Shown piece after piece: positions 31,350 to 48,744 of a stretch of DNA of 64,000 nt; within the stretch, counting starts at the first letter, position 1; the number at the start of each line of letters is the position of its first letter. A program made the position numbers and the translations under genes. The DNA comes from a candidate division WOR-1 bacterium RIFOXYB2_FULL_45_9 (lineage in GTDB: Bacteria; Margulisbacteria; WOR-1; O2-12-FULL-45-9; XYB2-FULL-48-7). The notes below the pieces were generated by a model. The model was not told the origin of the DNA. It saw only the letters and a list, made by a program, of their open reading frames with translations, and made no database searches. The DNA is taken from the NCBI GenBank assembly GCA_001771575.1, contig MEUD01000001.1:768815-832814 (forward strand), in the 5' to 3' direction.

Positions 31350-32285
31350 TTACCAAATACCACCAAAGGATATCCTATGGACATTGGACCTTGATAATTC
31401 CTGGGAAACATAGCCGTAATCAACGATCACGTGACCGACCACGAAACCGACCCCAGCGGTCAGACCGCTGGCATTATACCCGGCCCTAAATGATAGTCCG
31501 CGATCGGACCACTCAAAGCCGGTCGCAACCTCCGGAGAATAATTTGATTTAACAGTTTGGCTGACATCAACCGCCACCCGGCTTTCGGACCAAGGAAACC
31601 AGCTCAAGCCCAGCCGCGCCTTGGGCGGAACGTTTTCGACTGTCCCGGTCCCCCACTGCTGGGTATTGACCAGCTCGTCGATCTTAAAACCAAGGGTAAC
31701 AGGGTACGGTAGACGGGACACGGAAGAGGAATTGCCAAATCTAATCATTATCCCAGGGGTTAAAGAGTAGCCCCAGCCGCTCCCCCCACTGATCCCAAAC
31801 ATCTCGGAGCTTAGATATTTCGCCGTCAGACCAAAGGCAATATGGTCGTTAAGCTTTTTTCCGAAAGAAATGAGATAAGCGTTAGAAAAGTAACTAAACA
31901 GGCTGATATCCTGAACTTCGTTGTGAATATCAACCTCGCTAGATGTTTGGGCTATATTCCCCAGCCCAACCTGAATCCAGGAAAGACCGATTGTCCCACC
32001 CAGAGCCGGAGTCACATAACTAAGATAGTAATGATCGGCGTCGGTCGAGAGCCTGGTTTGACTGCAGGTGATCTCCTGGCTGGTAATAAACCCAAGACCG
32101 GCCGGGTTCCAGTAAGGAGCGTCGGCGTTATCGGCAATGGCGGTAAAGGCTCCTCCCATTGCCAGCGGACGAGCTCCGACGCCAGCATTGAGGACGGCGA
32201 TGTCGGTACCGGATTGGCCAAGGGCGAGAACAGCTGTAAGCGATAAGCCGTAAGCAATGAGCAAGAGAAATACAACTTTCTTCAT
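31350..32285 (-). CDS. PorV/PorQ-like (FadL-fold) outer-membrane beta-barrel
   Basis: 311 aa. Signal peptide. N-terminal GARPLAMGGAFTAIADNADAPYWNPAGLG matches the PorV/UPF0164 signature (aMGGAf.A.aDDa.a.ywNPAGL). Alternating strands, C-terminal ISFGGIW. Confidence 0.65.
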   Translation of the reverse strand: MKKVVFLLLIAYGLSLTAVLALGQSGTDIAVLNAGVGARPLAMGGAFTAIADNADAPYWNPAGLGFITSQEITCSQTRLSTDADHYYLSYVTPALGGTIGLSWIQVGLGNIAQTSSEVDIHNEVQDISLFSYFSNAYLISFGKKLNDHIAFGLTAKYLSSEMFGISGGSGWGYSLTPGIMIRFGNSSSVSRLPYPVTLGFKIDELVNTQQWGTGTVENVPPKARLGLSWFPWSESRVAVDVSQTVKSNYSPEVATGFEWSDRGLSFRAGYNASGLTAGVGFVVGHVIVDYGYVSQELSRSNVHRISFGGIW

Positions 32286-35200
32286 TTGAGCACCGCAATT
32301 TTGCCGCGTCCTCTGACGGTCCTATCCCCTATCCGCGCCGTGACCTCGAAGGGGTAAATTCCATTAACCACCAGATCGCCTCGACCATTCCGCCCATCCC
32401 AGGAAACATCGTTATACTTTTGCCAAACACTGGTTCCTTCGCCGTTGGTCGTCCCGTCAAGCTCGGTAACCAATGAACCAGTTAGGTCATAAATCCTGAT
32501 CTTGACCTCATCGGCGTCAGACGAGAGCCGGTAGCGGATCTTGGTCTCTTCCCGGTTCGGGTTGAAGGGGTTTGGATAATTGGTCACTCCGACCAGGGTC
32601 AGTTCCGGCTGAACCCGGAAGCTCCAGCTCTCCGAAGTTGCCGCATTGGTCGGAAAAAGAGCGGTCACTCTCCAAAAGTAGTCAGTGTTCCGCTCCAGCC
32701 CCGGGTCAAATTCGTGGATCGCGTAGTTGTAGTAATAGAGTTCGCTATCTGCTTTATCCTGGGTCCCAGTCCCGGCCGCTTTACTGAAAGTCTGGTGGTC
32801 AATCGTAAAGCTATCGTTCTTGGCGACCTCAATCCGGTACTCGGTCGTCTCCGCCTTGTGATGCTGCCATTCAAAGACCGGTCGGATATTCTGTACGTTT
32901 TGCTGATCCCTGGCCGGGGCTATAAGGGAAGGAGATTCGAGGGTAGCGGCGGCCATTATTCCTTTCGTAATCGCGCTTGCTCCTAATTTTGTTCCGGTAA
33001 TGGGGGCAAAATTTATCGGGATCTTCTGGAAAAACAACTCGTCAAATTGCCCAATATTTATTATCCAAGCAATATATGAACTATTATTATTTTCAGCACA
33101 AATAGCCACATCAGTCGCGTTTCCCCCGTTAAACACTTTTACCGGACCATAAATATCATTACCAACTATTCGCTTATAATATATATTGCCATTTGAAATC
33201 GAAACAATATGTCGATAATTGTCAATTGAATAATTAGCGCTCTTTGGAACGATCCCTGATCGAGGATTAACAGCCGCTGAAACAATCTTTGCCTGATATT
33301 CCTTCCCACATCCCTTTTCATAATAAGGGTTATTGTCAGGCCCATCATGCCATTGCAAGGTCATATAATCCTGGGTACTGATATCAAAGCCGGTTATCTC
33401 AACTAGGACATTGCTGTGTTGTAATAATCGCTGATCATCCAGCAAGTTAATATCAATATTCCTTGTTATTGCATTATTTCCAATATTATCAACGGCACCA
33501 ATCTCGATCGAATAGCTCCCCTCGTTCTCATAGTCGCCGCTGTTATTCGTCCCGTCCCACGACACATAATAACCGCCGCTTCCGTTGCTATTAACCGTCA
33601 AGTTTTTAACTATAGCGCTTCCGAATCTAACAACCGAGGAGATATTGCCGATCGCGAAACCGGAGCTTGGAGCGCCATCGCTCGCCGTAAAATCGACCCG
33701 AGCGCCGCTGTCAACATAAGGGTTAAAAGTAATTGCCAACGTTTGAATGATATTGATTACCGGCGGAATGTTATCGATCTTTATCGTTATTTTTGTTTCC
33801 GCGTAGTTGCCAACTTCGTCGGTCGCGGAAAGTCTTATGTCGTAATCACCATCAACACCGGCAGTGTTCCAGGAAGTTATTGTCCCGCTTATCGGATAAC
33901 TATCTTTTTTGATAACCGTCCAGGTATTTGACCCAAATGGCGCGTAGTCAACTTTATAAGCGCCAGGGTTAGTATCAGTCGCGCTGCCGGCAATAATGAT
34001 CGATCCTTTAATCCATTCATTCGCGGCCGGCGCTGAAATATTTACGGCCGGCGGCGTTTTGTCAACTAATATCCGATAATAAGTATCCTCTCCACCCAAT
34101 GGCTTATATGCACCATAGCCGGCTTTTCTGGAATCAAAGGAATTCCCGGCGGCGTCGGTCGCGGTATAGTAATAGTAGTAATAGCCATCATGTCCGGTCG
34201 GTTCCCACTCCTGATTGATAACCAGGTCACCGGTTTGCGGAGGAACTGCCGTCGCTCCAAAGGTCTTCACCAAACCGCCGCCGGCATTCACGATTTTGAT
34301 CTGCCAATTGTTTATCCCCGAAATCGCGTCCGCGCCGCCATTGAAATCGGCCATGACCCCAAGTAAAGTAGTTGTCGGATTATTGACCGTAACCGGCGGG
34401 GGTTGAACGACCGACTTAATAACAGGGGCGGCGGAATCCAACACAATCTGGTCGGCAAAAAGAGCGGTCGAATAATTCCCCGCCCTGTCCATTAGTCTCA
34501 CCCGCGCCGTCTTGGTCCCGTCTCCGGCCGAAAGCGTCCAACTTCTCCCCACCGCGTAAGCCTCCCAGGAGGACCAGTTGATACCATCAGGGCTGAAGCT
34601 CATCTGGTCGACCCCCGAGGTTGGATCGCTGGCGGAGACGAACACCTCAACGGTCAAAGAGCTGGTAAAATCAGGGTTACCCGCGTTGACGATCACGCTT
34701 CCATCAGGCGCTAAAGTATCAGCGACAACGCTGACCGTTTGAGCCGTTGAATTATTTCCAGCCTCATCGATCGCAATGATGTTAAAGTAATATTCTCCGT
34801 CGCCAAATCCGCTTCCATTTGCCGCGCCGACATAACCGGTCGCGCCGGAGCCGTCCCAGAGGGCGGAACAGCTTCCGCTCGTCCGCCAAACCTCTGAAGT
34901 CAGGCTCTTCACTAAATCGTTCCCTTTAAAAACCTCGACCGCGACTTTAGCCCGGCCGGAATTATCGCTCACTTCATAGGTACAAACAGTTGTTTTACCG
35001 GATGAGTTAGTTCCGCCGGGAGCAAAATAATATGGCGTTGCTAAAACATTTTTAACCTCGGGCAAGGAGTTGTCGACCGTCACCTCTCCGGTCAACGGAG
35101 GTAGGTGATTGCCGGCATAATCTTCAAGATCGATCGCGAGCCAATACTTCCCATTGGCGGCATAAGAACCGTTGTTATCCTTGCCATCCCAATCCTCCCA

Positions 35201-38200
35201 GGAGAGGGTCCCAGATTGGGCGACAGCGTCAGTCGTAATGGTCCGGACCAGGCTGGTCATGGCGCTATCGCCATAAACCTTAAGGGAATACTTGCCGACC
35301 GGCTTGGTGTCTATGGTCACCCCCATCGCCTCGATCCTCTCCGCCGCCGGAACCGTCGCCGGATTTAAAGAGAGATCGACCATAAAGTAGAATCGAGCCC
35401 GTTTTTGGAACTCTTGGCTGTTGCCGTTTGGCGAAATGACTTGTGGATCGGGATTATTTGTCACATCGGAAGCCTCAAACTGCTCCGGAGAGCGGAGAGT
35501 TAAAACATTGTTCTGGACCCAAACAGTTCCACCCCATTTTCGGAGAGTGGCGTTCCCCAGACTGTCTTCACCTTCGACAATAAAGGCGTATTTGCCGGGA
35601 TCAACATAATCACCGCCAGCCATTTTCCCGTCCCAATTAACCTGGTACTGCTGACCACCGCTCTGCCATTGGCCGGCTATCAGCGTTGTCACTAAATTTG
35701 TGAAATCGGTTTTTTGCTTATTGGGATCGAGCCGATAAACTTTAACCGAGACCAGGGTGTCTTCAGTCAACATGTAATACAGAGTGGTAGCGCGCGGACG
35801 GTCGCTCCCATCAGGGTTGGCATTGGTCGAGAAGCTCCCCGGGTTGGCGATCATCCCCTCTTCACTGGAAATAATGACCATCGGGTTGGTGACATCGACC
35901 GCAAAATCCTTGGTCAACGAAGTGATCGTTCCCAATCGGTCTTGAATGGTAATTTTGGCGTAATACTTGCCGGTCGGAAGAAGCGAGCCGCTCGACAAGC
36001 CCGCGGCAGGATAATTGGTCCGGCCGTCGTAAACATAGGAGTAGCTCCCGGAAGAGCGTTCCAGTCCGGTTTCAAAAAGTATTTCGCCGTTTGCCGAAAG
36101 GACCGACAAAAGGACGCTCGGTTCTCCTTCGACAACGTAAAACGGTGGATAGATGACTGAATAATTGATCGTCATAGTTTCATTATTATCGTCGCCATTG
36201 GGAGAAAAGGCGGCTGGATTCAAAGTGAAATCAGGGGTGATCTTTCCACCCGCCGCTTCGAGCCTGCCGCTCGCCTCGACTTTTACCCCATCCGCGTCGG
36301 TCGCCGTTATTTGGTAGTGGTATTCGCCGTCCGGGACATATGTTTCAGCCGACGAAAGGACAATTGATTTTCCATCCCAATAGAATGAATAGCTCCCCGA
36401 CGATTGTTCGTCATTTTCTGCCAGGCGTCGGATAGTGGTCCCAATGGCATTAACAACATCAACGTTAACAATGTAAGGCGGGGTTCCGCCGCTAAGTTGA
36501 TAGGCAATCCGGATGGTATCGGTATGACCGTCGCCGTTCGGGGTAAAGATCGCCGGATCGGCAAGATGGTCCAAGATCGTGGCGGCCGCGAAAGCGAATT
36601 TCTCGGAGGCGGTCGCTTCATTTGAGGATCGATCGACCGCCCTGACCGTCACCGTCCCTCTGTAGCCGACTGCTTCCTCATCGAAAATCAGCTTATATTC
36701 CCCGGCGGTTTTAGCTTCGCAGGTCATAAGCGGGGCGGCTTTGCCATCATCGCAGGTAAGGGTGACATCGACGGTCGAGTCTTCGGGGACCATGAAGGTG
36801 ACGGTCGCTTGTTTGCCGTCGATCTGGACCGGCCGGAGAATAACGGTCGGCGCGGTCCCGTCGACCCGGACAGTATTGCTTGCTTCCGCAGAAATTCCGT
36901 CCGAGCCAATAACAGCCAGTTTGATCAAATAAGAGCCGTCGCTGACTTTTTCCCCATCCCCTCCCCTGCCGGACCAGTAAACAGCATGTTCCCCTTTTCC
37001 CTGGGAGGCATCCTTTAGAAGAGTTGTGACGATTTGTTCACCGGTTATCGCCAAATTGACCTTAAGGTCGTCCCGGGAAAGATAGTATTTTATCGCGGCG
37101 CCGGACGCCGGAGAAAAAGGGTCCGGCTCGGCAAAAAGATATGAAATAAGAGTTGGCGCCCGGTCGACAACGATCGCTTTAATCTCGGAGGTAACGCTGT
37201 TGCCGACCCAGTCTTCGGCATAGATATAATATGAATAGTTTCCACCGAGAAGTTCATTGCTGTTCCCGCGGCCATCCCAGCTCCAGCTCCCGCTGGAGAA
37301 TGACAAATGACCAATGTCAAATGACAAATTGGGATATTGAAATTTCTCGGTCTGACTTTCAGCATTCTTGAAGAGCTCGCCGTCTTCGCGATAAATCCCA
37401 AGCTTGACCGCGGAGGGTTCGCTCAATTTATACCAAAAATCGGTCGTATCTTTTACCCCATCATCGTTGGGGGTGAACGGGTTTGGCGCGGCGTTCAAAC
37501 CCAAAACCTTTGGCGGAGTAAGGTCGATCACGGTCTTGACCATGACGTTCTCGGAAATATTCCCCGCCTCATCGATAGCGTAACCAACCACGGAGTATTC
37601 TCCGTCTATTAAATTTGCAGGATTTGGGACCTGGGAATAAAGGGCCCAAAGGCCGGTCGCGTCATCCCGGCGATACAGCTTAAACCCTTCATTTGACCAA
37701 TTGACCTTAAGCTCTTTTCCCGCCGGAAGCGGCGCGTCGATATTGATCAGGTCGCTTGATTCCTTAACTCCCAGGTAGATCTTTCCTTTTTCATTGATCG
37801 TCATGAGGAAATCGACACTATCGTATTTTCCATCGCCGTTAGGGGAAAAAGCGTAGAGATTTGGAACAATACCAACCGTTGGCGGGGCGGTATCCTTCAT
37901 GACCATGACATCGCCACAGGTTAAAACATCGGGATTCCCTTGGGGATGAGAAGTCACGTAAATGTAATTAGCTCCTTCCTGTAATAGGGGAACATTCTCA
38001 AAACGGAAATTGCCGTCCTCATCGGCCACCTCACCCTCATCCACCATCGCCTTCGGCGACGGTCCCCCTTCTCCCGCTGTGGCGGGAGAAGGCCGCACAA
38101 TCAGATTTAAGACCGAGCCTGGCTCTGCCGTGCCGTAAATAGTCACGCTGTTTTTATTGGTAACATAACGATCAGCCAGGACGATCGGCGCGGAAAGCTT

Positions 38201-41200
38201 AAATTTGCCGGGAAGAAGAGCGTAGGTCGAAAAATGGTCGAGAGCTGCGTAAAAGACATATTGCTTTTCGCCGTTATTCTCTTCGATCGTCTGCTGGTTG
38301 TCGGAAATTATCTGCAGATCCCCCGCCTCCGTCACCTGGTGGATATTCCAGGGAAGATTTTTCGGCTCCCCTTCTCCGCTCCAGGCGCCAAGTTCTTTTA
38401 ACTCGTCAAAGGTATAAATAAAACGGAGGGTCGGCCGGAGGTCAACCCCTTCGAGGGAACTGACCGTAAATTTCCAGGGCGAAGGTTTTATCTCCACGAT
38501 CGGCCCGGAGGTCAAAATAATCGGCTTATTGCGGATCTTAATTTCTTTCATCGTCACCGGAGTAACCGTCGCCAGCTGGTCGCGATCGCCAAACGCGCGA
38601 GGGGGGAATTTGAGCTGGGCTCGTTTGTAGGCGCTCCAGGCGTCACCGCCCGTCTCTTTTTTGATCAGCGTACCGATTGAAACATTTTGGGTGGCGATAA
38701 AACTGCCGGAGCGGAGCAGGACCGTGTAATCGCCGCTTAAGCGGGAGACGTTCCACCAGGCCAGACGTCCGCTGGTCGGGGCTTCGTCAAACGATTGAGC
38801 GATCGACTGCCAGCTCTTGCCGTCGTAATATTGCAGTTCATATGGGCCGGGAGCCTGGCCGGTAATTTCCACGAAACGGGATTCGGAAGCATCAAGCTTT
38901 AGCTTGAGGGCGAGGGTATCGTCCAAACGCCTTTCTCCGGCAGTGATCCCTTCAAGAACAATATCTTTATTGATCGCGCCGCTTTTATCTTTTATTAATA
39001 CATCCCAGCGATCGATCTCAAGATGAGGGTTATCGACCGGACTGTCAAAGTTGTCCGGCTCCCAGGGATCTCTTTTTAAGAAAGTCTGTTTTGCTGCGGC
39101 CGCCGACCGGTAATCATCGGCAACCTGGTAAGCGGAAGAGAGCTTAAGGAGGCGTCTCGACCGGAAAGCATCCGGATTGAACGCGAGAGGGAGGCTCCTA
39201 AGATAACCCCGGCTAGCGAGCAAATTTGTATCGTCGGCAGTCGTCCAGGGGAAGCCGCTTATATCCTGGTCCTCGGCGTTAACGACCGCGCTGGGGGCGG
39301 AAGATGACAGAGAAACCATGATCCCCGGTGTGTTGCTCTCGACCTGAAATAACTTGTCGTAGACATAATTGGGCAAAGGGAGGAGTTGATCGACCGCCTG
39401 GGAACTCCATTCTCCCCGTTTTGAAGTTTTATTGTAATAAACCTGTCCGGTAAAAACAGCGGAGTTATTTTGGTCGATCCGCCGCTGGTTGACCTGGGAG
39501 AGATCAAGTTTCCACCAGGTCCCGGCGATAGTCGGACCGGTATAATTTTGCGGCTCGCCGCCAAGCTCCTTGTCCAGCTTTCTTTGTTGAGCGGTCTGAC
39601 TGGCAACAGCGGTGGCATATTCGCTTTCCCGCCACGGCCAGCTGAAGATAAAGGGAGATTGAGGGTTGCCGTCGTAGAGATAAACCAGGTCGGTGTGGGC
39701 GGTAACGATCGTGGAGCCATCGGAAAAATCAAGGCCTCCCCGGTTGCCGCCGGCCTGGTCCGGATAAGTGATCGGAATAAATTCAAAGTATTCTTCGGAG
39801 AGGTAGCTGTCGTAGCCGGCTGATGACGCGAGCGAATCTTTATAGCCCAAGAGGCTTGCCTGTTCGCTCATCTCTTTAAGTTTTGCGCTCCGGTCGCTCC
39901 AGGAAGTAAGTCCGGCAAACTCCGCTTCGATCTCGTTTTTCGGCTTGTAAGGGAGATCGGGTTTAGCGTCGGGATCGTCAAAAAACTTTTTCCCGGGGAA
40001 GCCCAAGCCCCGATTGATATCCGTTAAATACTCGGAAAAATCCTTCCGCTTCTCCTCATTAGCGTTAACAAAACCGAACCAGGGGACAAAACGGTTGGTG
40101 AGGCGGGAATAGGGAATTTCGCCATCCAGCGAAAGTCTAACAATTATTTTGGGTTTTGCATTATCTGTTTGTTTGTTTATCAACTTAATTTTAAATATCC
40201 CTTTTTGTGTAGAAAAAGTACTTAAATTCTTCTCAAGCACATTCCATTGCGCTCGTTGATAATCGTTCATTTTGTCAAGTAAAAACTCGCTTTCGGAATG
40301 GACTTCTACTAAGGCATCAACACCGGTTATTCCTTGCCAATCCCAATCGGCAGCATTGAGATTAAATGTTAGCTCATATACTGGGTTATCCTTAGATAAT
40401 TCAAATATTTTAAAATCAGATTCGCTGTCAATAATCGTATAAGCTTGACCGTTATCTAAACCAAACATATCTTTTGACGGTCGATAACAATGCGATTTAA
40501 ATTTAACCTTAATTTTCCCAAATACCCGATTAAACCCCCGATGCATCAGTCCGGCGAAAGGCACATATGGATAAGCGGTTATTTTTTGTTTGCCAAAGGC
40601 GGTCAAAGTATAGGTCAAATCCTTGACCGGATGATAACTGCCATAACCTTTGGCTTCAAAATAGAAGGGAGAGTCACCGTCCGCCAACCAAAGATTGCCG
40701 ACCTGCCGGCCAATCGGGTCAAGCTTCACTTGGCTTTCGTTTCTTTCAAACGAAACGACTTTTATCCCGTCAATAACCTCCGTCTTGGTCCCCGACCCGT
40801 CTTTGGCGGCGGCGATCAAAACGATCTTGTAATTTCCACTGGTCACCACCTGGGTCGAGTCACTGTTGGGATAATTCCCGGTCCACACCAGTCCCTCTTT
40901 CCCTACGGCCAGGCCGGCGACAAAATCACCGTTTTCTTTTTGAACCCGCGCGGTTATAAGGGCGTCTTTGGAAACGTTATAGAAAACGGAAACCCGGTCA
41001 GGGACAGAGAGTGAACTAAACTCTTTATTGGTCGCCTCTTTAACCTTCAATTCGAACGGCGTGGTCACATTAACCACCGCCTCATCGGAGGCTAAGCCGC
41101 GGCCATCCGCCCCTTCCGCGATCACTCTGACAATATAGGCGCCGTTGTCGACATAAGCGCCGGTATCCAAGCGACCATCCCAGGAAGTAGTAAGGGATAA

Positions 41201-44200
41201 GTTGTAAGTAGTAAGAGAGGAATGGGAACCCATTTCTGTCAAATTAATCAGCCTTTGATTGGCGACGTCGATCACCAGCGGCAGGAATTGCTGGGTCTGT
41301 TTGGTTATCCCCAGGTAGACATTATCAGCGTAGATCGAAGGAGATGGGTCTTCGTCAAGTTTGGGGGTGATCATCAACTGGCCACCGTCAGCGGTAAAGT
41401 CAAAGCCTTTTTCTCCCCCGGCAATCGTTGAGTCCCAAGAGATCATGTTGTGGGCAACTCTCACCCCTATCCCCTCTCCCCCACCAGAGGCGGGCAGGCT
41501 CGGGAGAGGGGTAATGTTCCCTCCAATGGTGATAATATTTCCCGTGAACTTATGACTTGAACCATCGGCCGACCAACGAATATGATAACCGGCTTCATCG
41601 CTCCAGATAAAATAACCAAGATCGGTCCCCGGCTTATAATCGGGTTTGCCGACAAACGGCGCCCCGGCGATGTTGGGGAAGTATTTGAAGAAGACGACCT
41701 CACCCCCCTCACCCACCGTCCCGCCTGCGGCGGACGGTCCCCCCTCTCCCGCTGGGGCGGGAGAGGGCCAAGCCCTGGGTTTAATGATTTCGACATAGAC
41801 ATTGGCTGGTTTGACGCTATTGATGAAACCTATCGGCAGTTTTACTGAATCATCGGCTCGAAAATCAACGTTTGACGCAAGGGGGTTGAGGTTAACGTAT
41901 GGGGAGGTCGCCATGGTTGAAGCGAATGAATTATTATTGACTTTGACGACCCTGGTCGCGGCGAGCGACTCGCCGTTCTCTTCATCAACCACCACCATGA
42001 TGGTGTATTCCCCATTCTCCAGCCCATTGGTGTTGAAGTATGCCAGGGTCGCGTCATTTTGCAGAGGGCGCAAAGAAACATTGGAATTCCCGCTCGCCCG
42101 GTTGATAAGGGGGACTTCGAGGGCGGCGGTCGAAAGCACGGAAGCCTGCGACAAGATCGTCGCGGCTTCCTGTTTCCCCTTCATATAGAATACCCGATAC
42201 TGCTTAAACGGTTTATCGTTTGACCAGTCGGGGTCCATGGCGGTGCCGCGGATGGCGATTAACCCAAATACTTCCGCTCCATTTTCCGCCGGGAAAGAAA
42301 TGACTGGAGCAATCCCGTCTTTAACACATGAAGAATACGCGGTCGCGCTGTTGCCGACATCATCGGTCGCGGTGATCTGGAATTTGTAGGAGCCTTTGGG
42401 GAGAGGGATCGAGGCATCAAGGGATCGAGCGGCATTCCAGGCAAGTTTGTTTTCTTCACTGATCAAACCGGAAGCGTTCTCAAAAAAGTCAACCTCCTGT
42501 CCGGTATTAACATTAAATACTTTTACTTTCACCTTGATCCCTTGATCCCTTTTATTCCCTTCCGCGTCGTTATTTTCCGACAATTGGTAAAATAGTGTTG
42601 TTTTATAAGCATTGGCGCCGATGTTGGTCAAAACATAGGGATTGGCGATCTGGCCGTAAATAACCGGCGGGGTCCGATCGATCCGGATCGCTTCTAACGT
42701 GCGGGGAGGACTTTCGTTCCCGGCATCGTCACGGGCAATCACTTCGACCCGGTAGAGGCCGTCTTCGGGTCCGGGATTGAAAGAGTTATTGAAGGGCCAG
42801 GAGTAAGAAGCGGGAAAGCTGTAAGCATTAAGCGGGAAAGCATTTGCTTGCGTTAAGTACGCCGTTATCTTTTTGTTCGATAAATTGTTGAGCTTGATGA
42901 TAACCTGCGCTTTTTCGCTGACGTTAGCGGTCAATTTCATTTCGGTGTTTATCGAGGTCGTCGGATTAGGGGTAATGGCTACCTCGCCAATAGTCGGTGG
43001 AGTGGAATCAACGACAAGCGGCGTTTCGGCAACGGCAGAGTTCCCCGCCAGGTCGAAAGCTTTTATTTTAACAATATATTTACCATCAGGAAGCGAGGCG
43101 CCAAGGTTTCCAGGCACCAAGGTGAAAAAGTTTTCACCTTTGGATAACGAATCAGCGGTAGCAATATTTGTAACAAATACTTGATTACTTGATTCCTCGA
43201 TGCCTTGATACCTATACAAATCACAGCGGACGGAGCGGAGGATGGGAGAGACTTCGTCGGTGGCTGACCAGCGGATCGTTGCCGGGGCGCGGGGACTGTA
43301 TGGCATAAGTGGTGAAACTGCCAGACTGGGAGCGCCGGTGTCGACGAAAAAGCCCCAGGCCGCCTGCGCGGTCCCAACATTGCTCTCGGCAACAACAAGT
43401 ACCTGATGCATTCCGTCGCTTAAGGGATGGTCTCCTTTCACTCTGACTATTGCTTTGGGATGATACGGATCGTTGATTATCTCAACCTCATACTCTACCT
43501 CCATCCCATCAACCAACACTCTTATAATTTTTACCGACTCCACTTCAAAGCTCCCGCTATACTCCGCTTTGTTAAACTCAACCGAGATCTCCGGGTTAGG
43601 CGTCGCGACATAATATTCCGGCAGAGGCTTAAATTGGCTTGGTTGCATTGGGATGGTGTTAAGGATTACCTTGAGAAGCTGGTTGGATTCATACCCGACC
43701 TTGTTCTTGGCTCTAAAAGCAATGACATTCTGCCCTTCGGCGAGCTTTAAACCGTCTACCTCAAAATTCCCCCATTCATCCATTTTGGGTACAGGCTTCC
43801 AGGCGGCGAAGTTTTCTGAACACTGGAAATATTGCATCTTACTCGGCATAAAATCGCGCAAGACCCCGCTTATTTTTGTCGGGGCTTCCTTAACCGAAAT
43901 CGACGTCACTTTTTGTTCCTGGCCATCGATCACAATTGGCACACTGGTGTTTGATCGGTTGTCATAGGAATATCCCTTGACCTCCACCGGGTGAAAAGCG
44001 CTTAAAGTTGTCACCTTACCGTCACTTTCTTTGGTTTGGTTGGTTGAGAGGATAAAGGGAATTTCTCGAAGGCTGGTCGTACTCGTGCTTCCAATATACG
44101 AAGAGTCAAAAATTGCTTCTTCAAGCATCGTCGCTCCGGTTAAATCCTCTTCAAATGAGACTTTTACCGGCGGATCGTTTGTTCCTATATTCGAAGTTGC

Positions 44201-45508
44201 CTCTGTTATCATTGGGTGTCTTATAATAACTTTATCTTTCATTGCGTTATGAGCCATTATATAATCGGTAGCATCTTCCATCGGCAAACACGCGAGGCCG
44301 GCTCCTACAGCAATCCATATTGACACATTTCCAGGCAGAAAATAGGTTGCCGCTAATACGCTGTCAATAACTGTCCCTAAAACAGCAATTGAAGAGCTTC
44401 TAAAGGTGTATTCATATCTTTTTGCTTCTCTTAAGCTTGCAATCCCTTCTCCTTTTTGGCTCGCAACCGAAGAAACAAGGTCGCCATCGTCAAAAAAAGG
44501 ATAGCCGGACATTACCGTCAATCCAATGCTTGATATCTTTTCTTCATAATTTCCCATATCTTTTTTGGTCAAAGCATTAGATAGCGCAGCGGTGAAACGC
44601 GTGACTACCACGGAATTATATACAAGCCCTGTTCCATCAGACACCCTGGTTGGCGTCGGAACCCCTTTTCCGGCTATTAAACTATACGAAGGCGCTTCAT
44701 ATATTCCTGGGACTTCTGATAATAAATTTAATTCATTTAAAAATGGCCCGTTCGGTTTTTGCTCCTGAACTATTGGTTGGCGAGCGTGTCTATCCAGTCC
44801 GGTTAGGGCTCCTTCAGTTAAAGCAGTTGAGGTCAACGCGGCTACCGCGTTGGAAGCCACAAACACCCTGGATGAGTAATCCCATGGAAATGCGCATAAG
44901 GCCAGCGCTGTCCAGGGGATTAGTATTCTTGCTCCCGCGTTTTCTTCCGACCAAATAGCCGCTTCTCCCGCCTGACTGCCAAGATGGGGAGTATCAATCG
45001 TTATTATCTTTTTTACGTTCCCCTCATAAAGTGGATTGCCATTTTCGTCTCTCCCCATCACGTAATAGCGAGCCGCGAGACCTCCAGCCGAGTGGCAGAT
45101 TAAGATGAATTGAGAGGGAACCATTGAGTCGGGGACATCGGCAATTGTGTTATAGTCATCATGCGAATCCAGCCTTATAACATATTTCTTAAAATCCGAC
45201 TTTGCCCATACAAACCAATCCTTAAGCTCCTTAGCCCAAGTTTTGATACTGCCAAATTTGTCTGAAAATTTATATCGGTAGACATGACCTCTTAATCCCA
45301 AACCGCCATCAGCAATAGATTTCTCGAGATATTCTTGAGTAGCCTTAAGACAATCTTCGCCATCTCCCGTACCATGGAGCATCAAGATTAAATAATTATT
45401 TAGAGATTCAACATTTCTATCCCGATCGGATACTAATTCAGCATTTGCTACACATGCCAAAACAACTAATAAACCAACCAAAACAATGTACTTAAACAGT
45501 CTCCCCAC
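32282..45508 (-). CDS. 4,408-aa secreted giant surface protein: N-terminal lipase-like alpha/beta-hydrolase, Ig-like array, repeated FlgD-Ig/CTD-like modules, C-terminal T9SS type-A-like sorting domain
   Basis: Single uninterrupted ORF with a GTG start. Signal peptide MGRLFKYIVLVGLLVVLACVANA|E. Hydrolase motifs LMLHGTGDG, ILICHSAGG (Ser140), IDTPHLGS. Many D.T.P-delimited Ig-like units. C-terminus: NYPNPFNPNREETKIRYRL...VKIRIYDLTGSLV...VSWDGRNGRGDLVVNGIYPFEV...GKIAVLK. Confidence 0.9.
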   Translation of the reverse strand: MGRLFKYIVLVGLLVVLACVANAELVSDRDRNVESLNNYLILMLHGTGDGEDCLKATQEYLEKSIADGGLGLRGHVYRYKFSDKFGSIKTWAKELKDWFVWAKSDFKKYVIRLDSHDDYNTIADVPDSMVPSQFILICHSAGGLAARYYVMGRDENGNPLYEGNVKKIITIDTPHLGSQAGEAAIWSEENAGARILIPWTALALCAFPWDYSSRVFVASNAVAALTSTALTEGALTGLDRHARQPIVQEQKPNGPFLNELNLLSEVPGIYEAPSYSLIAGKGVPTPTRVSDGTGLVYNSVVVTRFTAALSNALTKKDMGNYEEKISSIGLTVMSGYPFFDDGDLVSSVASQKGEGIASLREAKRYEYTFRSSSIAVLGTVIDSVLAATYFLPGNVSIWIAVGAGLACLPMEDATDYIMAHNAMKDKVIIRHPMITEATSNIGTNDPPVKVSFEEDLTGATMLEEAIFDSSYIGSTSTTSLREIPFILSTNQTKESDGKVTTLSAFHPVEVKGYSYDNRSNTSVPIVIDGQEQKVTSISVKEAPTKISGVLRDFMPSKMQYFQCSENFAAWKPVPKMDEWGNFEVDGLKLAEGQNVIAFRAKNKVGYESNQLLKVILNTIPMQPSQFKPLPEYYVATPNPEISVEFNKAEYSGSFEVESVKIIRVLVDGMEVEYEVEIINDPYHPKAIVRVKGDHPLSDGMHQVLVVAESNVGTAQAAWGFFVDTGAPSLAVSPLMPYSPRAPATIRWSATDEVSPILRSVRCDLYRYQGIEESSNQVFVTNIATADSLSKGENFFTLVPGNLGASLPDGKYIVKIKAFDLAGNSAVAETPLVVDSTPPTIGEVAITPNPTTSINTEMKLTANVSEKAQVIIKLNNLSNKKITAYLTQANAFPLNAYSFPASYSWPFNNSFNPGPEDGLYRVEVIARDDAGNESPPRTLEAIRIDRTPPVIYGQIANPYVLTNIGANAYKTTLFYQLSENNDAEGNKRDQGIKVKVKVFNVNTGQEVDFFENASGLISEENKLAWNAARSLDASIPLPKGSYKFQITATDDVGNSATAYSSCVKDGIAPVISFPAENGAEVFGLIAIRGTAMDPDWSNDKPFKQYRVFYMKGKQEAATILSQASVLSTAALEVPLINRASGNSNVSLRPLQNDATLAYFNTNGLENGEYTIMVVVDEENGESLAATRVVKVNNNSFASTMATSPYVNLNPLASNVDFRADDSVKLPIGFINSVKPANVYVEIIKPRAWPSPAPAGEGGPSAAGGTVGEGGEVVFFKYFPNIAGAPFVGKPDYKPGTDLGYFIWSDEAGYHIRWSADGSSHKFTGNIITIGGNITPLPSLPASGGGEGIGVRVAHNMISWDSTIAGGEKGFDFTADGGQLMITPKLDEDPSPSIYADNVYLGITKQTQQFLPLVIDVANQRLINLTEMGSHSSLTTYNLSLTTSWDGRLDTGAYVDNGAYIVRVIAEGADGRGLASDEAVVNVTTPFELKVKEATNKEFSSLSVPDRVSVFYNVSKDALITARVQKENGDFVAGLAVGKEGLVWTGNYPNSDSTQVVTSGNYKIVLIAAAKDGSGTKTEVIDGIKVVSFERNESQVKLDPIGRQVGNLWLADGDSPFYFEAKGYGSYHPVKDLTYTLTAFGKQKITAYPYVPFAGLMHRGFNRVFGKIKVKFKSHCYRPSKDMFGLDNGQAYTIIDSESDFKIFELSKDNPVYELTFNLNAADWDWQGITGVDALVEVHSESEFLLDKMNDYQRAQWNVLEKNLSTFSTQKGIFKIKLINKQTDNAKPKIIVRLSLDGEIPYSRLTNRFVPWFGFVNANEEKRKDFSEYLTDINRGLGFPGKKFFDDPDAKPDLPYKPKNEIEAEFAGLTSWSDRSAKLKEMSEQASLLGYKDSLASSAGYDSYLSEEYFEFIPITYPDQAGGNRGGLDFSDGSTIVTAHTDLVYLYDGNPQSPFIFSWPWRESEYATAVASQTAQQRKLDKELGGEPQNYTGPTIAGTWWKLDLSQVNQRRIDQNNSAVFTGQVYYNKTSKRGEWSSQAVDQLLPLPNYVYDKLFQVESNTPGIMVSLSSSAPSAVVNAEDQDISGFPWTTADDTNLLASRGYLRSLPLAFNPDAFRSRRLLKLSSAYQVADDYRSAAAAKQTFLKRDPWEPDNFDSPVDNPHLEIDRWDVLIKDKSGAINKDIVLEGITAGERRLDDTLALKLKLDASESRFVEITGQAPGPYELQYYDGKSWQSIAQSFDEAPTSGRLAWWNVSRLSGDYTVLLRSGSFIATQNVSIGTLIKKETGGDAWSAYKRAQLKFPPRAFGDRDQLATVTPVTMKEIKIRNKPIILTSGPIVEIKPSPWKFTVSSLEGVDLRPTLRFIYTFDELKELGAWSGEGEPKNLPWNIHQVTEAGDLQIISDNQQTIEENNGEKQYVFYAALDHFSTYALLPGKFKLSAPIVLADRYVTNKNSVTIYGTAEPGSVLNLIVRPSPATAGEGGPSPKAMVDEGEVADEDGNFRFENVPLLQEGANYIYVTSHPQGNPDVLTCGDVMVMKDTAPPTVGIVPNLYAFSPNGDGKYDSVDFLMTINEKGKIYLGVKESSDLINIDAPLPAGKELKVNWSNEGFKLYRRDDATGLWALYSQVPNPANLIDGEYSVVGYAIDEAGNISENVMVKTVIDLTPPKVLGLNAAPNPFTPNDDGVKDTTDFWYKLSEPSAVKLGIYREDGELFKNAESQTEKFQYPNLSFDIGHLSFSSGSWSWDGRGNSNELLGGNYSYYIYAEDWVGNSVTSEIKAIVVDRAPTLISYLFAEPDPFSPASGAAIKYYLSRDDLKVNLAITGEQIVTTLLKDASQGKGEHAVYWSGRGGDGEKVSDGSYLIKLAVIGSDGISAEASNTVRVDGTAPTVILRPVQIDGKQATVTFMVPEDSTVDVTLTCDDGKAAPLMTCEAKTAGEYKLIFDEEAVGYRGTVTVRAVDRSSNEATASEKFAFAAATILDHLADPAIFTPNGDGHTDTIRIAYQLSGGTPPYIVNVDVVNAIGTTIRRLAENDEQSSGSYSFYWDGKSIVLSSAETYVPDGEYHYQITATDADGVKVEASGRLEAAGGKITPDFTLNPAAFSPNGDDNNETMTINYSVIYPPFYVVEGEPSVLLSVLSANGEILFETGLERSSGSYSYVYDGRTNYPAAGLSSGSLLPTGKYYAKITIQDRLGTITSLTKDFAVDVTNPMVIISSEEGMIANPGSFSTNANPDGSDRPRATTLYYMLTEDTLVSVKVYRLDPNKQKTDFTNLVTTLIAGQWQSGGQQYQVNWDGKMAGGDYVDPGKYAFIVEGEDSLGNATLRKWGGTVWVQNNVLTLRSPEQFEASDVTNNPDPQVISPNGNSQEFQKRARFYFMVDLSLNPATVPAAERIEAMGVTIDTKPVGKYSLKVYGDSAMTSLVRTITTDAVAQSGTLSWEDWDGKDNNGSYAANGKYWLAIDLEDYAGNHLPPLTGEVTVDNSLPEVKNVLATPYYFAPGGTNSSGKTTVCTYEVSDNSGRAKVAVEVFKGNDLVKSLTSEVWRTSGSCSALWDGSGATGYVGAANGSGFGDGEYYFNIIAIDEAGNNSTAQTVSVVADTLAPDGSVIVNAGNPDFTSSLTVEVFVSASDPTSGVDQMSFSPDGINWSSWEAYAVGRSWTLSAGDGTKTARVRLMDRAGNYSTALFADQIVLDSAAPVIKSVVQPPPVTVNNPTTTLLGVMADFNGGADAISGINNWQIKIVNAGGGLVKTFGATAVPPQTGDLVINQEWEPTGHDGYYYYYYTATDAAGNSFDSRKAGYGAYKPLGGEDTYYRILVDKTPPAVNISAPAANEWIKGSIIIAGSATDTNPGAYKVDYAPFGSNTWTVIKKDSYPISGTITSWNTAGVDGDYDIRLSATDEVGNYAETKITIKIDNIPPVINIIQTLAITFNPYVDSGARVDFTASDGAPSSGFAIGNISSVVRFGSAIVKNLTVNSNGSGGYYVSWDGTNNSGDYENEGSYSIEIGAVDNIGNNAITRNIDINLLDDQRLLQHSNVLVEITGFDISTQDYMTLQWHDGPDNNPYYEKGCGKEYQAKIVSAAVNPRSGIVPKSANYSIDNYRHIVSISNGNIYYKRIVGNDIYGPVKVFNGGNATDVAICAENNNSSYIAWIINIGQFDELFFQKIPINFAPITGTKLGASAITKGIMAAATLESPSLIAPARDQQNVQNIRPVFEWQHHKAETTEYRIEVAKNDSFTIDHQTFSKAAGTGTQDKADSELYYYNYAIHEFDPGLERNTDYFWRVTALFPTNAATSESWSFRVQPELTLVGVTNYPNPFNPNREETKIRYRLSSDADEVKIRIYDLTGSLVTELDGTTNGEGTSVWQKYNDVSWDGRNGRGDLVVNGIYPFEVTARIGDRTVRGRGKIAVLK
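38067..38092. repeat. in-frame GC hairpin element A inside the giant gene
   Basis: CCTTCTCCCGC-TGTG-GCGGGAGAAGG, a perfect 11-bp stem. Encodes PSPATAGEGG. Confidence 0.8.
41471..41511. repeat. related in-frame inverted repeat C inside the giant gene
   Basis: CCCCTCTCCC (41471-41480) and GGGAGAGGGG (41502-41511) separated by 21 nt. Encodes PLPSLPASGGGEG. Confidence 0.65.
41742..41767. repeat. in-frame GC hairpin element B inside the giant gene
   Basis: CCCTCTCCCGC-TGGG-GCGGGAGAGGG, a perfect 11-bp stem. It differs from element A by a compensatory T:A to C:G pair and shares the left flank GGCG(G)ACGGTCCCC. Encodes PSPAPAGEGG. Confidence 0.8.
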
Positions 45509-45520
45509 AGTCGGCCCCCA

Positions 45521-46483
45521 TTATTTTATCTCCTTATAACCAGATCCATCGATACTTATAATCCAAATTCCACTTTTGTCATATTCATTCAGGTATATGC
45601 CGCCACAAACTTGATTGTTATCTGGTGATAGCTTGGGATTTGTCCATGTTTTAGGCGACAATTGTCCACTAAGACCATGCGTTATGGTATTTATAATTGT
45701 CTTGTTCAGCACATCAATTTTTAAAAAGCTCGTGCTATTACTTGTAAATATATAATTGCCATCAGAATAATATTGAGGGTATGCGCCTATGCTTTCGCTT
45801 GAAAGAGTTGTGGTTTCAATATTCAAGCCGTCTGCCCCGGTAAAAGCCAAACAATAGTAACCATTTATTGCATTCAAAAATGCTATTTTTGTTGAATATT
45901 TCCATGTGGGTTCAGCCGCATGAATTCCTGATATTTCAACTTTATTACTTCCATCAATATTCACGGAAAACAATGGGATAACACTATTAAAAGGTGTATA
46001 GGTTAATATCTCTTCCCGATAAACTAACTTATCCTCTTCCGGTCCCCAATCAAGCTCGGCAATGGCTTGAGTTGTTGGTTGAAAACTATAAACCTGGGTG
46101 TTATCTGACCTCCGAACAATATGAAAAGTCGAGGTATTATCAACATAACAAACATATGTCCCTTTGGGTGAAAAATATGGATAATATGAATACGGCAATA
46201 TTGATTGATGAGTCCCATTAGTATCCATTGTCGCATAATAAGTGTCTTCGCCCGTCTTAATTGTCTTTTGCCCGCCAAAAAATAATCCTTGCCATTCATT
46301 TTTGTAATGGGACACAACCATCCTGGCGTAAATATTCCCCTCCGGTGTCCAGTTAGGATCGAAATATGATATTTCGTCATATACCGTCTCCCCACACCCT
46401 CCTCCTACAATCGCCAACCCAAAAAGAGCCGCCGCCAACAACATTAATCCAACCGCTTTTTTTATCGTCATTTTAACAACCAC
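45521..46483 (-). CDS. lipoprotein with TolB-like beta-propeller repeats
   Basis: 320 aa. Lipobox LAIVGGGC. Recurrent SP.G / dG..i.y strand patterns (FSPKGTYVCYV, LSPDNNQV, ISIDGSGYKEI). Very AT-rich gene. Confidence 0.55.
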   Translation of the reverse strand: MVVKMTIKKAVGLMLLAAALFGLAIVGGGCGETVYDEISYFDPNWTPEGNIYARMVVSHYKNEWQGLFFGGQKTIKTGEDTYYATMDTNGTHQSILPYSYYPYFSPKGTYVCYVDNTSTFHIVRRSDNTQVYSFQPTTQAIAELDWGPEEDKLVYREEILTYTPFNSVIPLFSVNIDGSNKVEISGIHAAEPTWKYSTKIAFLNAINGYYCLAFTGADGLNIETTTLSSESIGAYPQYYSDGNYIFTSNSTSFLKIDVLNKTIINTITHGLSGQLSPKTWTNPKLSPDNNQVCGGIYLNEYDKSGIWIISIDGSGYKEIK

Positions 46484-46688: not shown

Positions 46689-47087
46689 TTATTCCCCTTC
46701 TCGACACCTTGATGCCTTAATGCCTAGATGCCTCTCCCCTAAGGCCCTAATCAAAGCCGCCAGCATTCTTTCAATCTCATTTTGCTTCTCGAATAAATCA
46801 TTAAACTTAGCTTGATTAAGATATTCTAGGTCTTTGGCCAACAACAATTGCGTTTCAAGTTCAGCTCCAGACGCGTAAGCAATTTTAAGGAACTGAATAT
46901 ATTGCCCCAAATACCTACGACCATACCCTTCCGCGATATTAAAAGGAATGGAAGCCGCCGCTCGCCTAATTTGTGATGTTAACCCATATTTCTCATCAGT
47001 CGGAAATTCTTTTGTTTCTTTATACACATCAAGCGTCAACACATATGACTTTTGCCATACCACTAGATCTTTGAAGGTTTTTATCAT
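46689..47087 (-). CDS. four-helix-bundle protein (23S rRNA intervening-sequence protein family)
   Basis: 132 aa. FKDLVVWQKSYVLTLDVYKETKEFPTDEKYGLTSQIRRAAASIPFNIAEGYGR...FLKIAYASGAELETQL matches the family signature closely. Confidence 0.85.
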   Translation of the reverse strand: MIKTFKDLVVWQKSYVLTLDVYKETKEFPTDEKYGLTSQIRRAAASIPFNIAEGYGRRYLGQYIQFLKIAYASGAELETQLLLAKDLEYLNQAKFNDLFEKQNEIERMLAALIRALGERHLGIKASRCREGE

Positions 47088-47964: not shown

Positions 47965-48744
47965 TTAAATATTTTTTAACCGGTACCGGAAATTAACCGC
48001 TATTGAGAAGAAAGAGGTGGTTTGCGATTTGTAGTAATCGTCAACTATTTCAAATTGCCAGGGCTCGTCATTATTGGCAGGGCCAAACCCAGCCAAGGTG
48101 CGCCAACCGGTCGCCATCCCCCCCGACATTGAAGAAAAATACGCGCCAACACCAAAGCCGAAATATCTTCCGTCATCTAAGCTGAATATCAGATCGTTGG
48201 TCACCGGCAGAACACCACACCTTGTCCCAAATAGGTAACCGACCGAAACTCTTGATTTTAGAGAAAACAACTGGTAGTCATGACTAAAACCGACCTGCAC
48301 GCCGGAGTTTGACCCGTAATTATAATAGGTGTTTTCATCATGATAACTAATGGCAGAATAGCCAAGTTGCCATCCCCAACCAGGCGAGGATTGGAGCGCG
48401 TTTGGTCGCGCAATTTCCTCGACAATAGCCTCCTGGGATGGTTCAATCTCCTGATTTTTAGCAATTGACACCCACAAAACGGCTTCTTCGCTTACCTTCA
48501 CTTCGATCATTTGAGAAAATATTTGCTGGTCAGCGCTATTCGCGGTTACCAGGTGCCGGCCGGCCTGAACTTTGGGCAAAGAAACCGGCGTCGCGCCAAC
48601 ATCGACCATATCCAAAGAGACCGGGATCGAGCCTGATTCTGAAGTGATAATTAATGAACCGTAGCCATTTGCCGCCAGGGTCGAAGAAGCCAAGAAAGCC
48701 AGAAAGCCAAGGATTAATACTTTTTTACTCAATTGAAATATCAT
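47965..48744 (-). CDS. PEGA-like domain protein with C-terminal beta-barrel region
   Basis: Start chosen at ATG 48744 (MIFQLSKKVLILGFLAFLASSTLA, a signal peptide, GAGGGGG RBS), overlapping the upstream gene by 20 nt. GSLIITSESGSIPVSLDMVDVGATPVSLPKVQAGRHLV resembles PEGA. The track version (to 48918) adds an implausible N-terminus. Confidence 0.55.
   Translation of the reverse strand: MIFQLSKKVLILGFLAFLASSTLAANGYGSLIITSESGSIPVSLDMVDVGATPVSLPKVQAGRHLVTANSADQQIFSQMIEVKVSEEAVLWVSIAKNQEIEPSQEAIVEEIARPNALQSSPGWGWQLGYSAISYHDENTYYNYGSNSGVQVGFSHDYQLFSLKSRVSVGYLFGTRCGVLPVTNDLIFSLDDGRYFGFGVGAYFSSMSGGMATGWRTLAGFGPANNDEPWQFEIVDDYYKSQTTSFFSIAVNFRYRLKNI

Follow-up and report, generated by a model that had tools for sequence, protein, structure and literature searches.

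Cargo proteins of the gingipain type, which use the secretion system of type IX (T9SS), have a standard layout in which a signal peptide is followed by an enzyme, one or more immunoglobulin (Ig)-like domains and a C-terminal domain (CTD). Giant adhesins of the Bap and RTX kinds are likewise secreted and rich in bacterial Ig-like domains, and carry a specialised distal module. We have analysed a stretch of 64,000 nucleotides from the candidate division WOR-1 bacterium RIFOXYB2_FULL_45_9 (contig MEUD01000001.1, positions 768,815 to 832,814; hereafter the window), in which a single open reading frame (ORF) of 13.2 kb encodes a protein of 4,408 residues, here called the giant. It consists of a signal peptide, a lipase-like head, a long stalk and a T9SS-like CTD. 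The giant shares with T9SS type-A cargo (gingipain RgpB) and with the Flavobacterium adhesins SprB and RemA the order of its parts, a C-terminal β-sandwich sorting domain of ∼100 residues and the involvement of a PorV-family barrel, and its size is comparable to that of SprB. It differs in its host, which belongs to the Margulisiibacteriota and not to a phylum of the Fibrobacterota–Chlorobiota–Bacteroidota (FCB) group; in its CTD, which falls just under both curated cut-offs (TIGR04183 and PF18962); in that each cargo gene here has its own translationally coupled PorV-like gene; and in its stalk, which is made up of dozens of different domains and a 1,400-residue region without a family match. 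In layout the giant follows the plan common to T9SS cargo, about tenfold enlarged, and its phylum lies beyond the range usual for T9SS. An initial annotation of this DNA had considered the architecture unusual; in fact the succession of signal peptide, enzyme, Ig-like domains and CTD is the standard one for T9SS cargo, and the arrangement recurs in many orthologues. What is new is the divergent lipase-like head family, the coupling of one cargo to one barrel, the conserved accessory genes and the phylum.

The surface proteins of the PorU–PorV and PorZ–PorQ pairs sit on their PorV or PorQ barrel with the CTD uncleaved (PMC10947112; PMC5562754). The Porphyromonas proteins PorU and PorZ retain their CTDs, and it is the PorQ barrel that keeps PorZ at the surface (PMC10947112). 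Among the best NCBIfam matches of the giant's CTD are those to PorU and PorZ, at their C-terminal ends. The passenger differs, being an enzyme-tipped giant stalk and not a sortase or lipopolysaccharide carrier, and binding without cleavage would be the feature carried over by analogy.

We read the giant as a cell-surface protein of a diderm Margulisiibacteriota bacterium, a lipase-tipped stalk held by its CTD on a barrel, and consider this reading rather likely to be correct. The Sec signal peptide, which is evident in the protein, would carry the giant across the inner membrane. After outer-membrane passage, the CTD would dock on the coupled PorV/PorQ-like barrel, with the C-terminus held at the surface; the pairing of the two genes is observed, and binding is proposed by analogy with PorU–PorV and PorZ–PorQ. 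Approximately 3,900 residues of mostly β-sandwich domains, in a fixed and non-repetitive order, would form a stalk that, when extended, might reach on the order of 100 nm by rough arithmetic. The N-terminal hydrolase, whose fold and nucleophile (Ser140, probably with Asp343 and His420) are described below, would stand at the far end and would hydrolyse lipid ester bonds of whatever the stalk touches, for example other cells or particles. Finally, in the periplasm, a TolB-like lipoprotein encoded just upstream probably handles the head or holds it in check, a role suggested by its conserved adjacency. The reading frame and its signal are as follows.

32282..45508, minus strand: giant ORF of 4,408 residues, with a GTG start and a TGA stop (ORF listing; translation without internal stop)
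45440..45508, minus strand: Sec signal peptide, residues 1-23, with cleavage after ANA (ANA/E), read from the translation

The frame is uninterrupted, as the initial annotation had it: the translation contains no stop, and two ENA sequences, a scaffold of 909 kb and a separate contig of 91 kb, encode the identical 4,408-residue product, as do 11 further similar places. The motifs to which that annotation had drawn attention all lie where it put them, namely LMLHGTGDG at residues 42-50, ILICHSAGG at 135-143 (including Ser140) and IDTPHLGS at 171-178, together with the C-terminal string NYPNPFNP...IRIYDLTGSLV...WDGRNGRGDLVVNGIYPFEV...KIAVLK. Residues 1-23, proposed there as a signal peptide, have the basic n-region, hydrophobic core and ANA|E site of an N-terminal Sec signal. 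Because the A-x-A site is kept in homologues while Cys19 is not, a lipobox is unlikely, and a signal peptidase II lipoprotein signal at Cys19 was ruled out. The start is credible because this signal follows it, because the N-terminal VGRLFKYIVLV aligns with the start of orthologue P0005 (MRGLIKYIVLV) and because a G-rich stretch lies 8-12 nt 5' of the GTG codon; the upstream gene stops 13 nt before it.

Whether other sequencing would split the ORF had been put forward as a check on it, and in one case it does. A Joint Genome Institute (JGI) contig (JGI 3300025152; L018 1-651) lacks ∼34 nt corresponding to window positions 39634-39667, so that the gene there falls into pieces of 216 and 2,345 residues, as would be expected if the long ORF were chimeric, or broken in the true genome, and thus an assembly artefact or pseudogene. 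However, the deletion sits 279 nt from the start of that contig, the remainder of which is 100% identical to the window, and we therefore read it as most likely an end-of-contig artefact, although it may be a real frameshift variant. At least two other independent assemblies yield the same intact product, and orthologues are collinear with it along the full length; the artefact explanation is largely refuted and retains hardly any probability. We conclude that the giant is a real, intact secreted protein of an uncultured Margulisiibacteriota bacterium.

At its C-terminal end the giant is followed directly by a second gene.

32285..32602, minus strand: C-terminal sorting or anchor domain (CTD), T9SS type-A-like, residues 4303-4408 (FlgD_ig, Por_Secre_tail, TIGR04183)
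31350..32285, minus strand: PorV/PorQ-family outer-membrane barrel, 311 residues (NF033709 score of 95 bits, above the cut-off of 90; start codon ATG overlaps the TGA of the giant)

The CTD passes the FlgD_ig model with 61 bits (cut-off 27), and also matches NCBIfam models of PorU, of PorZ and of a T9SS-dependent M6-like protein at their very C-terminal ends. The ATG of the barrel gene overlaps the TGA of the giant by 4 nt (ATGA; ...AAATGA...), an arrangement for translational coupling, and the 311-residue product carries its own signal peptide and belongs to the PorV/PorQ family by its NF033709 score. It has 444 homologues, of which the named ones are mostly from metagenome-assembled genomes (MAGs) of Margulisiibacteriota, WOR-1 or Saganbacteria, and many are already named PorV/PorQ family protein by NCBI. 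The T9SS-like tail of the initial annotation is upheld by these results, with the qualification that its TIGR04183 (T9SS type A) score is 21.6 bits against a cut-off of 23.

In each of the four cases that were examined, the gene directly after that of the CTD-bearing protein belongs to the PorV/PorQ family, and in two of them the 4-nt overlap is present. A second giant of 3,205 residues (L141 387-10927), ∼57 kb from the window on the same ENA scaffold, has FG-GAP, NHL and SGL propeller domains and Ig-like domains and no lipase head; its pre-CTD domain and CTD are nearly identical to those of the first giant, and the next gene, which again overlaps its own by 4 nt, encodes a PorV-like paralogue of 66% identity. 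After the gene of P0007, a Saganbacteria orthologue of 5,281 residues, comes a PorV-like gene of 56% identity. In another Saganbacteria locus (L003), a 1,470-residue G8-domain protein with the same type of CTD precedes a PorV-family gene that scores 142 bits. The pairing of CTD and barrel gene is a rule and not a coincidence. Because the CTD is common to unrelated passengers, it looks like a sorting or anchoring signal.

The same pair of genes could serve a classical T9SS cargo. The genome would then encode a full T9SS. After recognition by PorV and passage through SprA/Sov, the CTD would be cut by the PorU sortase, leaving the new C-terminus covalently on lipopolysaccharide and making the neighbouring barrel a shuttle and not the final anchor. 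This would suit a CTD of the type-A class with an adjoining PorV-family gene, as PorV is the shuttle for ordinary type-A cargo (PMC5562754). An exact degenerate DNA-pattern scan of GTDB genomes for the motif that opens the CTD, NYPNPFNPN, gave at least 120 loci; among the matches listed, these were mostly from Ignavibacteria, Cloacimonadota, Balneolaceae, KSB1, Zixibacteria, Calditrichota, Marinimicrobia and Bacteroidota, so mostly from FCB lineages, and these are the lineages in which this CTD class is common. On the other hand, no SprA/Sov, PorU or PorK/L/M/N gene turned up in the window or the fetched loci, in which no search aimed at them was made. Coupled genes with one barrel for each cargo are also unlike the organisation of PorV in Bacteroidota. 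As it is described, T9SS does not extend beyond Bacteroidota and their relatives (PMC12365241), and a literature search found no paper linking it with Margulisbacteria or Saganbacteria. We therefore regard classical T9SS cargo as unlikely.

Several of these results also weigh against a CTD docked on its own barrel. The core genes did not appear in the window or the fetched loci, where no search was aimed at them, and the host phylum lies outside the Bacteroidota/FCB group in which T9SS is established. The CTD is 1.4 bits short of the TIGR04183 cut-off, and reaches 19.9 bits with Por_Secre_tail (PF18962), for which 27 are required. In addition, the PorV/PorQ family includes FadL-like barrels of organisms that do not have T9SS, and the Pfam family UPF0164, which overlaps it, is treponemal.

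The N-terminal head carries the following features.

44213..45439, minus strand: lipase-like α/β-hydrolase head, residues 24-432 (AlphaFold2 model, Foldseek, hhalign against LipA)
45089..45091, minus strand: Ser140 codon, predicted nucleophile (C-H-S-A-G-G), invariant in 40/40 heads, aligned to LipA Ser77 and placed in a strand-turn-helix
44480..44482, minus strand: Asp343 codon, candidate catalytic acid (DDGDLV, end of a strand), Asp in 27/40 heads
44249..44251, minus strand: His420 codon, candidate catalytic base (YIMAHN, ahead of the last helix), with His kept in 25/29 aligned heads, local predicted local distance difference test score (pLDDT) ∼91

An AlphaFold2 model of the head from a 24-sequence alignment has a mean pLDDT of 86.4 and a predicted TM-score (pTM) of 0.87; it supersedes a first run from a 5-sequence alignment, which gave a pLDDT of 48 and weak fold matches. 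With this model Foldseek gave 76 PDB matches at E<=1e-3, of which the best 50 are nearly all bacterial family-I 'true' lipases at probability 1.0, from Geobacillus, Burkholderia, Proteus, Pseudomonas aeruginosa and Staphylococcus. The head therefore has the core fold of the α/β-hydrolases, and the lipase-like head of the initial annotation is supported in this respect. Profile–profile comparison by hhalign aligned the head with Bacillus subtilis LipA (query sequence confirmed identical to PDB 1I6W) at a probability of 96.7% and E 4e-10, over 98 columns and in the first half only. In this alignment the HG oxyanion motifs are paired (VHGIGG in LipA), as are AHSMGG and CHSAGG, and hence LipA Ser77 and Ser140.

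The proposed nucleophile is well supported by both model and conservation. Ser140 lies between strand 133-139 and helix 141-151, the position of a nucleophile elbow, and His45-Gly46 directly follow strand 39-44, as an oxyanion-hole HG does after strand 3. In 40 full homologous heads, Ser140, Gly342 and Ser350 are each invariant (40/40), His139 is kept in 39 and the HG of residues 45-46 in 38. The other candidates stand in canonical order, with Asp343 ending a strand and His420 preceding the last helix as in other lipases. The motif around Asp343, D-x-hydrophobic-V...S..G, may be read as resembling the surroundings of LipA Asp133. We regard Ser140 as secure, and Asp343 and His420 as probable triad partners, judged by their conservation and position.

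Compared with the family-I lipases (LipA of I.4; those of Pseudomonas, Proteus and Burkholderia of I.1/I.2; that of Geobacillus of I.5), the head has the same α/β-hydrolase core, the HG oxyanion motif, the A/C-H-S-x-G-G elbow, a ..D.PH.GS motif after strand 6 and Asp-x-hydrophobic-V after strand 7. It differs in its big helical insertions, in a His that comes 77 residues after the Asp and in a sequence similarity that is limited to the first half. In the model, helical insertions follow strand 6, and a hydrophobic helical pair lies between strand 8 and His420. Lipid esterases of the PGAP1, DUF676, LCAT and palmitoyl-thioesterase kinds provide the best Pfam matches of the head, at the nucleophile elbow, but these span only ∼50 residues and all are below the gathering score.

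Against a working hydrolase it has to be said, first, that no hydrolase model of Pfam or NCBIfam reached its cut-off on the head. PGAP1, Palm_thioest, DUF7379, DUF676, LCAT and Abhydrolase_6 all stayed below theirs (PGAP1, the best, at 22.7 bits against 24.3), and they matched only around the elbow, within residues 113-238 and mostly ∼129-184. A direct HMMER search of the head against PDB sequences gave no match, and with a profile of the head the best was LipA at an E of only ∼0.1. The TM-scores against the lipases are just 0.3-0.4, which we take to mean that the core is common to the head and the lipases and the insertions are not. Position 343 is Asp in 27, Ser in 12 and Thr in one of the 40 heads; an Asp is found two residues earlier in nine of the 13 exceptions, and four of the 40 have no acid at either 341 or 343. 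His420 is separated from Asp343 by two hydrophobic helices modelled at a pLDDT of only 59-77.

The variable acid, the sub-threshold hydrolase models and the big, poorly modelled hydrophobic insertions would all fit a pseudo-lipase, a non-catalytic head that grips a hydrophobic ligand, with the protein as a whole acting purely as an adhesin. Near-invariance of Ser140, the preceding His and the HG motif in 40 diverged heads is, however, hard to explain if there is no catalysis, and Ser, Asp and His are all present in the giant and its closest orthologues. A pseudo-lipase thus seems to us distinctly unlikely, and we read the head as a genuine, very divergent lipase-type hydrolase that is a remote relative of the bacterial family-I lipases.

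Between head and CTD, the stalk can be divided as follows.

43649..44212, minus strand: linker and first conserved β domain (VKEAPTKISGVLRDF...NTIPM), residues 433-620, conserved in all full-length homologues
42209..43648, minus strand: first Ig-like block (Big_13 and Big_3 types), residues 621-1100, with VD.T.P boundaries (Pfam and pattern)
37898..42208, minus strand: central conserved region without a family match, residues 1101-2537, collinear with orthologues at 37-64% identity
32909..37897, minus strand: second Ig-like block (FlgD_ig, CHU_C-like, Big_3_2, OmpL47-type barrel, Big_13, Big_3_3), residues 2538-4200 (Pfam and NCBIfam)
32603..32908, minus strand: Fn3/Ig-like domain before the tail, residues 4201-4302, with a weak Ig_Rha78A_N match and nearly identical in the second giant

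Over the whole stalk, Pfam assigns Big_13, Big_3_2/3/4, FlgD_ig (five stretches), a CHU_C-like domain, K319L-PKD and Big_6, and NCBIfam an OmpL47-type barrel domain. The initial annotation had seen a long series of Ig-like units delimited by D.T.P motifs. Ig-like blocks are indeed found on both sides, but the ∼1,400 central residues (∼1100-2540) have no significant family match, with only weak ones to FlgD_ig, SOP4 (residues 2487-2514) and Big_6. VD.T.P-type boundaries number just 16 in the giant; between residues 1063 and 2538 none fits a spacing of ∼100-125 residues, and the lone match there is VDQLLP at residue 2039.

Self-comparison of the giant by BLASTP gave no internal match at E<=1e-3, and Tandem Repeats Finder detected no tandem repeats in its DNA. 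Orthologues align with it over ∼4,400 residues at 64% identity (P0012), ∼3,000 at 46% (P0019), ∼3,300 at 42% (P0007), ∼3,900 at 40% (P0040) and ∼3,300 at 38% (P0057). As repeats are absent and orthologues are collinear, the stalk is a fixed series of different domains and not a repeat array. In this the giant differs from the Bap and RTX adhesins: it has no near-identical tandem repeats in protein or DNA, its domain order is fixed across orthologues and its sorting signal is another one.

GC-rich, double-hairpin palindromic DNA elements lie in frame within the giant gene (window 41699-41785, 38024-38110 and 41429-41515), and others are found at L001 5830-5891 and L011 4743-4782. They translate to PSPAPAGEGGPS.., PSPATAGEGGPSPKAMVDEGE or GGGEGIGVRV, and this peptide signature occurs at non-homologous positions in orthologues. 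The palindrome core, CTCCCGC-N4-GCGGGAG, occurs twice in the window, both times within the giant gene, where 0.01 occurrences are expected. This suggests a putative mobile element whose insertions leave the coding sequence unbroken. The palindromic elements of Rickettsia are comparable in-frame insertions into coding sequence.

The giant is a member of a conserved but unstudied family and not a one-off. Scanned with the head profile, the GTDB species genomes gave 16 loci, the best 85% identical, most of them in MAGs of Candidatus Margulisiibacteriota, WOR-1 or Saganbacteria. A word-indexed protein search with the head gave just four relatives; in an exhaustive profile search 977 database representatives matched at E<=1e-3, of which 50 reached E<=1e-30. 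Giants of 4,400-7,800 residues with an N-terminal head and the same CTD (P0007, P0012, P0019, P0040, P0053 and P0057) occur across Margulisiibacteriota and Saganbacteria. Those named are called 'hypothetical protein' (MBI5701146.1 from Saganbacteria, PZM82174.1 from Margulisiibacteriota), and others are wrongly named 'flagellar hook assembly protein FlgD'.

The head is also found on different bodies (P0069, P0096 and a group of ∼3,800-4,000 residues comprising P0123, P0128 and P0145) and in stand-alone proteins of ∼720-800 residues that consist of the head and two β domains (L013 9896-12277, P0001 and P0004). The stand-alone forms all end at the VDT.PP...SR boundary where the giants go on, and that of L013 is far from the ends of its 143-kb contig; it may be, then, that the head module also functions by itself, in a short secreted form. 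A 2,223-residue ORF in L003 was considered as a complete short homologue and ruled out, as it stops in mid-body ∼130 nt from the contig end.

Upstream of the giant, the window encodes the following proteins.

45521..46483, minus strand: TolB/PD40-like β-propeller lipoprotein, 320 residues, lipobox GGC (alignment), directly upstream of the giant
46689-47087, minus strand: Avd-like or '23S rRNA intervening sequence' four-helix-bundle gene, 132 residues, between the conserved cluster and the lipoprotein gene
47965..48918, minus strand: PEGA-domain protein, 317 residues, in the conserved upstream cluster
48725..49999, minus strand: InhA-like MAM or choice-of-anchor-J protein, 424 residues, in the conserved upstream cluster
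49999..51870, minus strand: CsgG/FlgT-like domain fused to a β-barrel, 623 residues, in the conserved upstream cluster

Homologues of the lipoprotein match the β-propeller models PD40, DPPIV_N and DUF5050, and a PDB profile search with it gave chance-level matches only. A homologue lies directly 5' of a head gene in seven other loci (L001, L002, L003, L005, L010, L011 and L016), among them heads just ∼25% identical to that of the giant. The second, head-less giant has no such neighbour, and the lipoprotein therefore seems to be tied to the head. It is absent from L020, from L013 and from the short single-cell contigs, and its absence from the first two counts against a role in handling or restraining the head.

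An adjacency that extends to distant heads with different bodies could equally mark a toxin and its immunity protein. The head would then be a phospholipase directed against competitors, cut off at the Ser/Thr-rich linker (residues 433-520) or shed with vesicles, and the lipoprotein would protect the producer, as in the Tle–Tli pairs of type VI secretion. That stand-alone heads of ∼720-800 residues end at the same domain boundary also fits a head that is released or delivered. No cleavage site or protease was identified, however, and the partner is a β-propeller without similarity to known immunity proteins or lipase foldases, and is missing from L020. We consider a released toxin improbable, and prefer a head that stays at the tip of a surface-held stalk.

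The CsgG-barrel, MAM and PEGA genes occur in the same order in L005, and are also present in L020 and partly in L001. The CsgG-barrel orthologues of L005 and L020 carry CsgG together with Toluene_X/OMP_b-brl. We would guess that the trio forms an export or anchoring platform. The fusion of a CsgG/FlgT-like periplasmic domain to a FadL/PorV-like barrel in one protein of 620-675 residues (window 49999-51870, minus strand; L005 3815-5842; L020 7217-9157) is an unusual combination.

A bolder proposal, which we put forward tentatively and think quite unlikely to hold in all its parts, is that in Margulisiibacteriota and Saganbacteria a reduced relative of type IX sorting operates independently of the T9SS core. 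Each uncleaved CTD would sit on its own co-translated PorV/PorQ-like barrel, and the set of CsgG-like barrel, MAM and PEGA proteins would aid export; the head would act as a contact-dependent phospholipase at arm's length, kept harmless in the periplasm by the TolB-like lipoprotein. If so, this would be a new secretion module, a cargo with its private anchor, in the sister phylum of the Cyanobacteria.

If the reading of the giant as a barrel-held surface protein is right, sorting by CTD and PorV-like barrel extends beyond the Bacteroidota-related phyla into a lineage that is sibling to the Cyanobacteria, and the arrangement of one cargo with one barrel could offer a simple model of the engagement between CTDs and PorV/PorQ barrels. 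It would also put a new lipase-like family at the distal end of proteins that are among the largest in these uncultured bacteria, a hint at contact-dependent lipid attack or lipid harvesting. Since the giants currently go under the names 'hypothetical' or, wrongly, 'FlgD', many MAGs would be better annotated if these proteins were correctly described.

The rest of the window is chromosomal housekeeping, with genes for TypA, RF3, the Rnf complex, PyrD, glycogen synthase and others. Homologues of the Avd-like gene are also present in L005 and L020; a diversity-generating retroelement, which such a gene brings to mind, was ruled out here, the window having no direct repeat of >=45 nt. Lastly, the pair of lipoprotein and head genes in L016 (8989-12848) is on a 13.8-kb scaffold titled Candidatus Taylorbacteria, a bacterium of the candidate phyla radiation (CPR) that would not have an outer membrane. 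Its presence in a CPR bin reflects either mis-binning or horizontal transfer.

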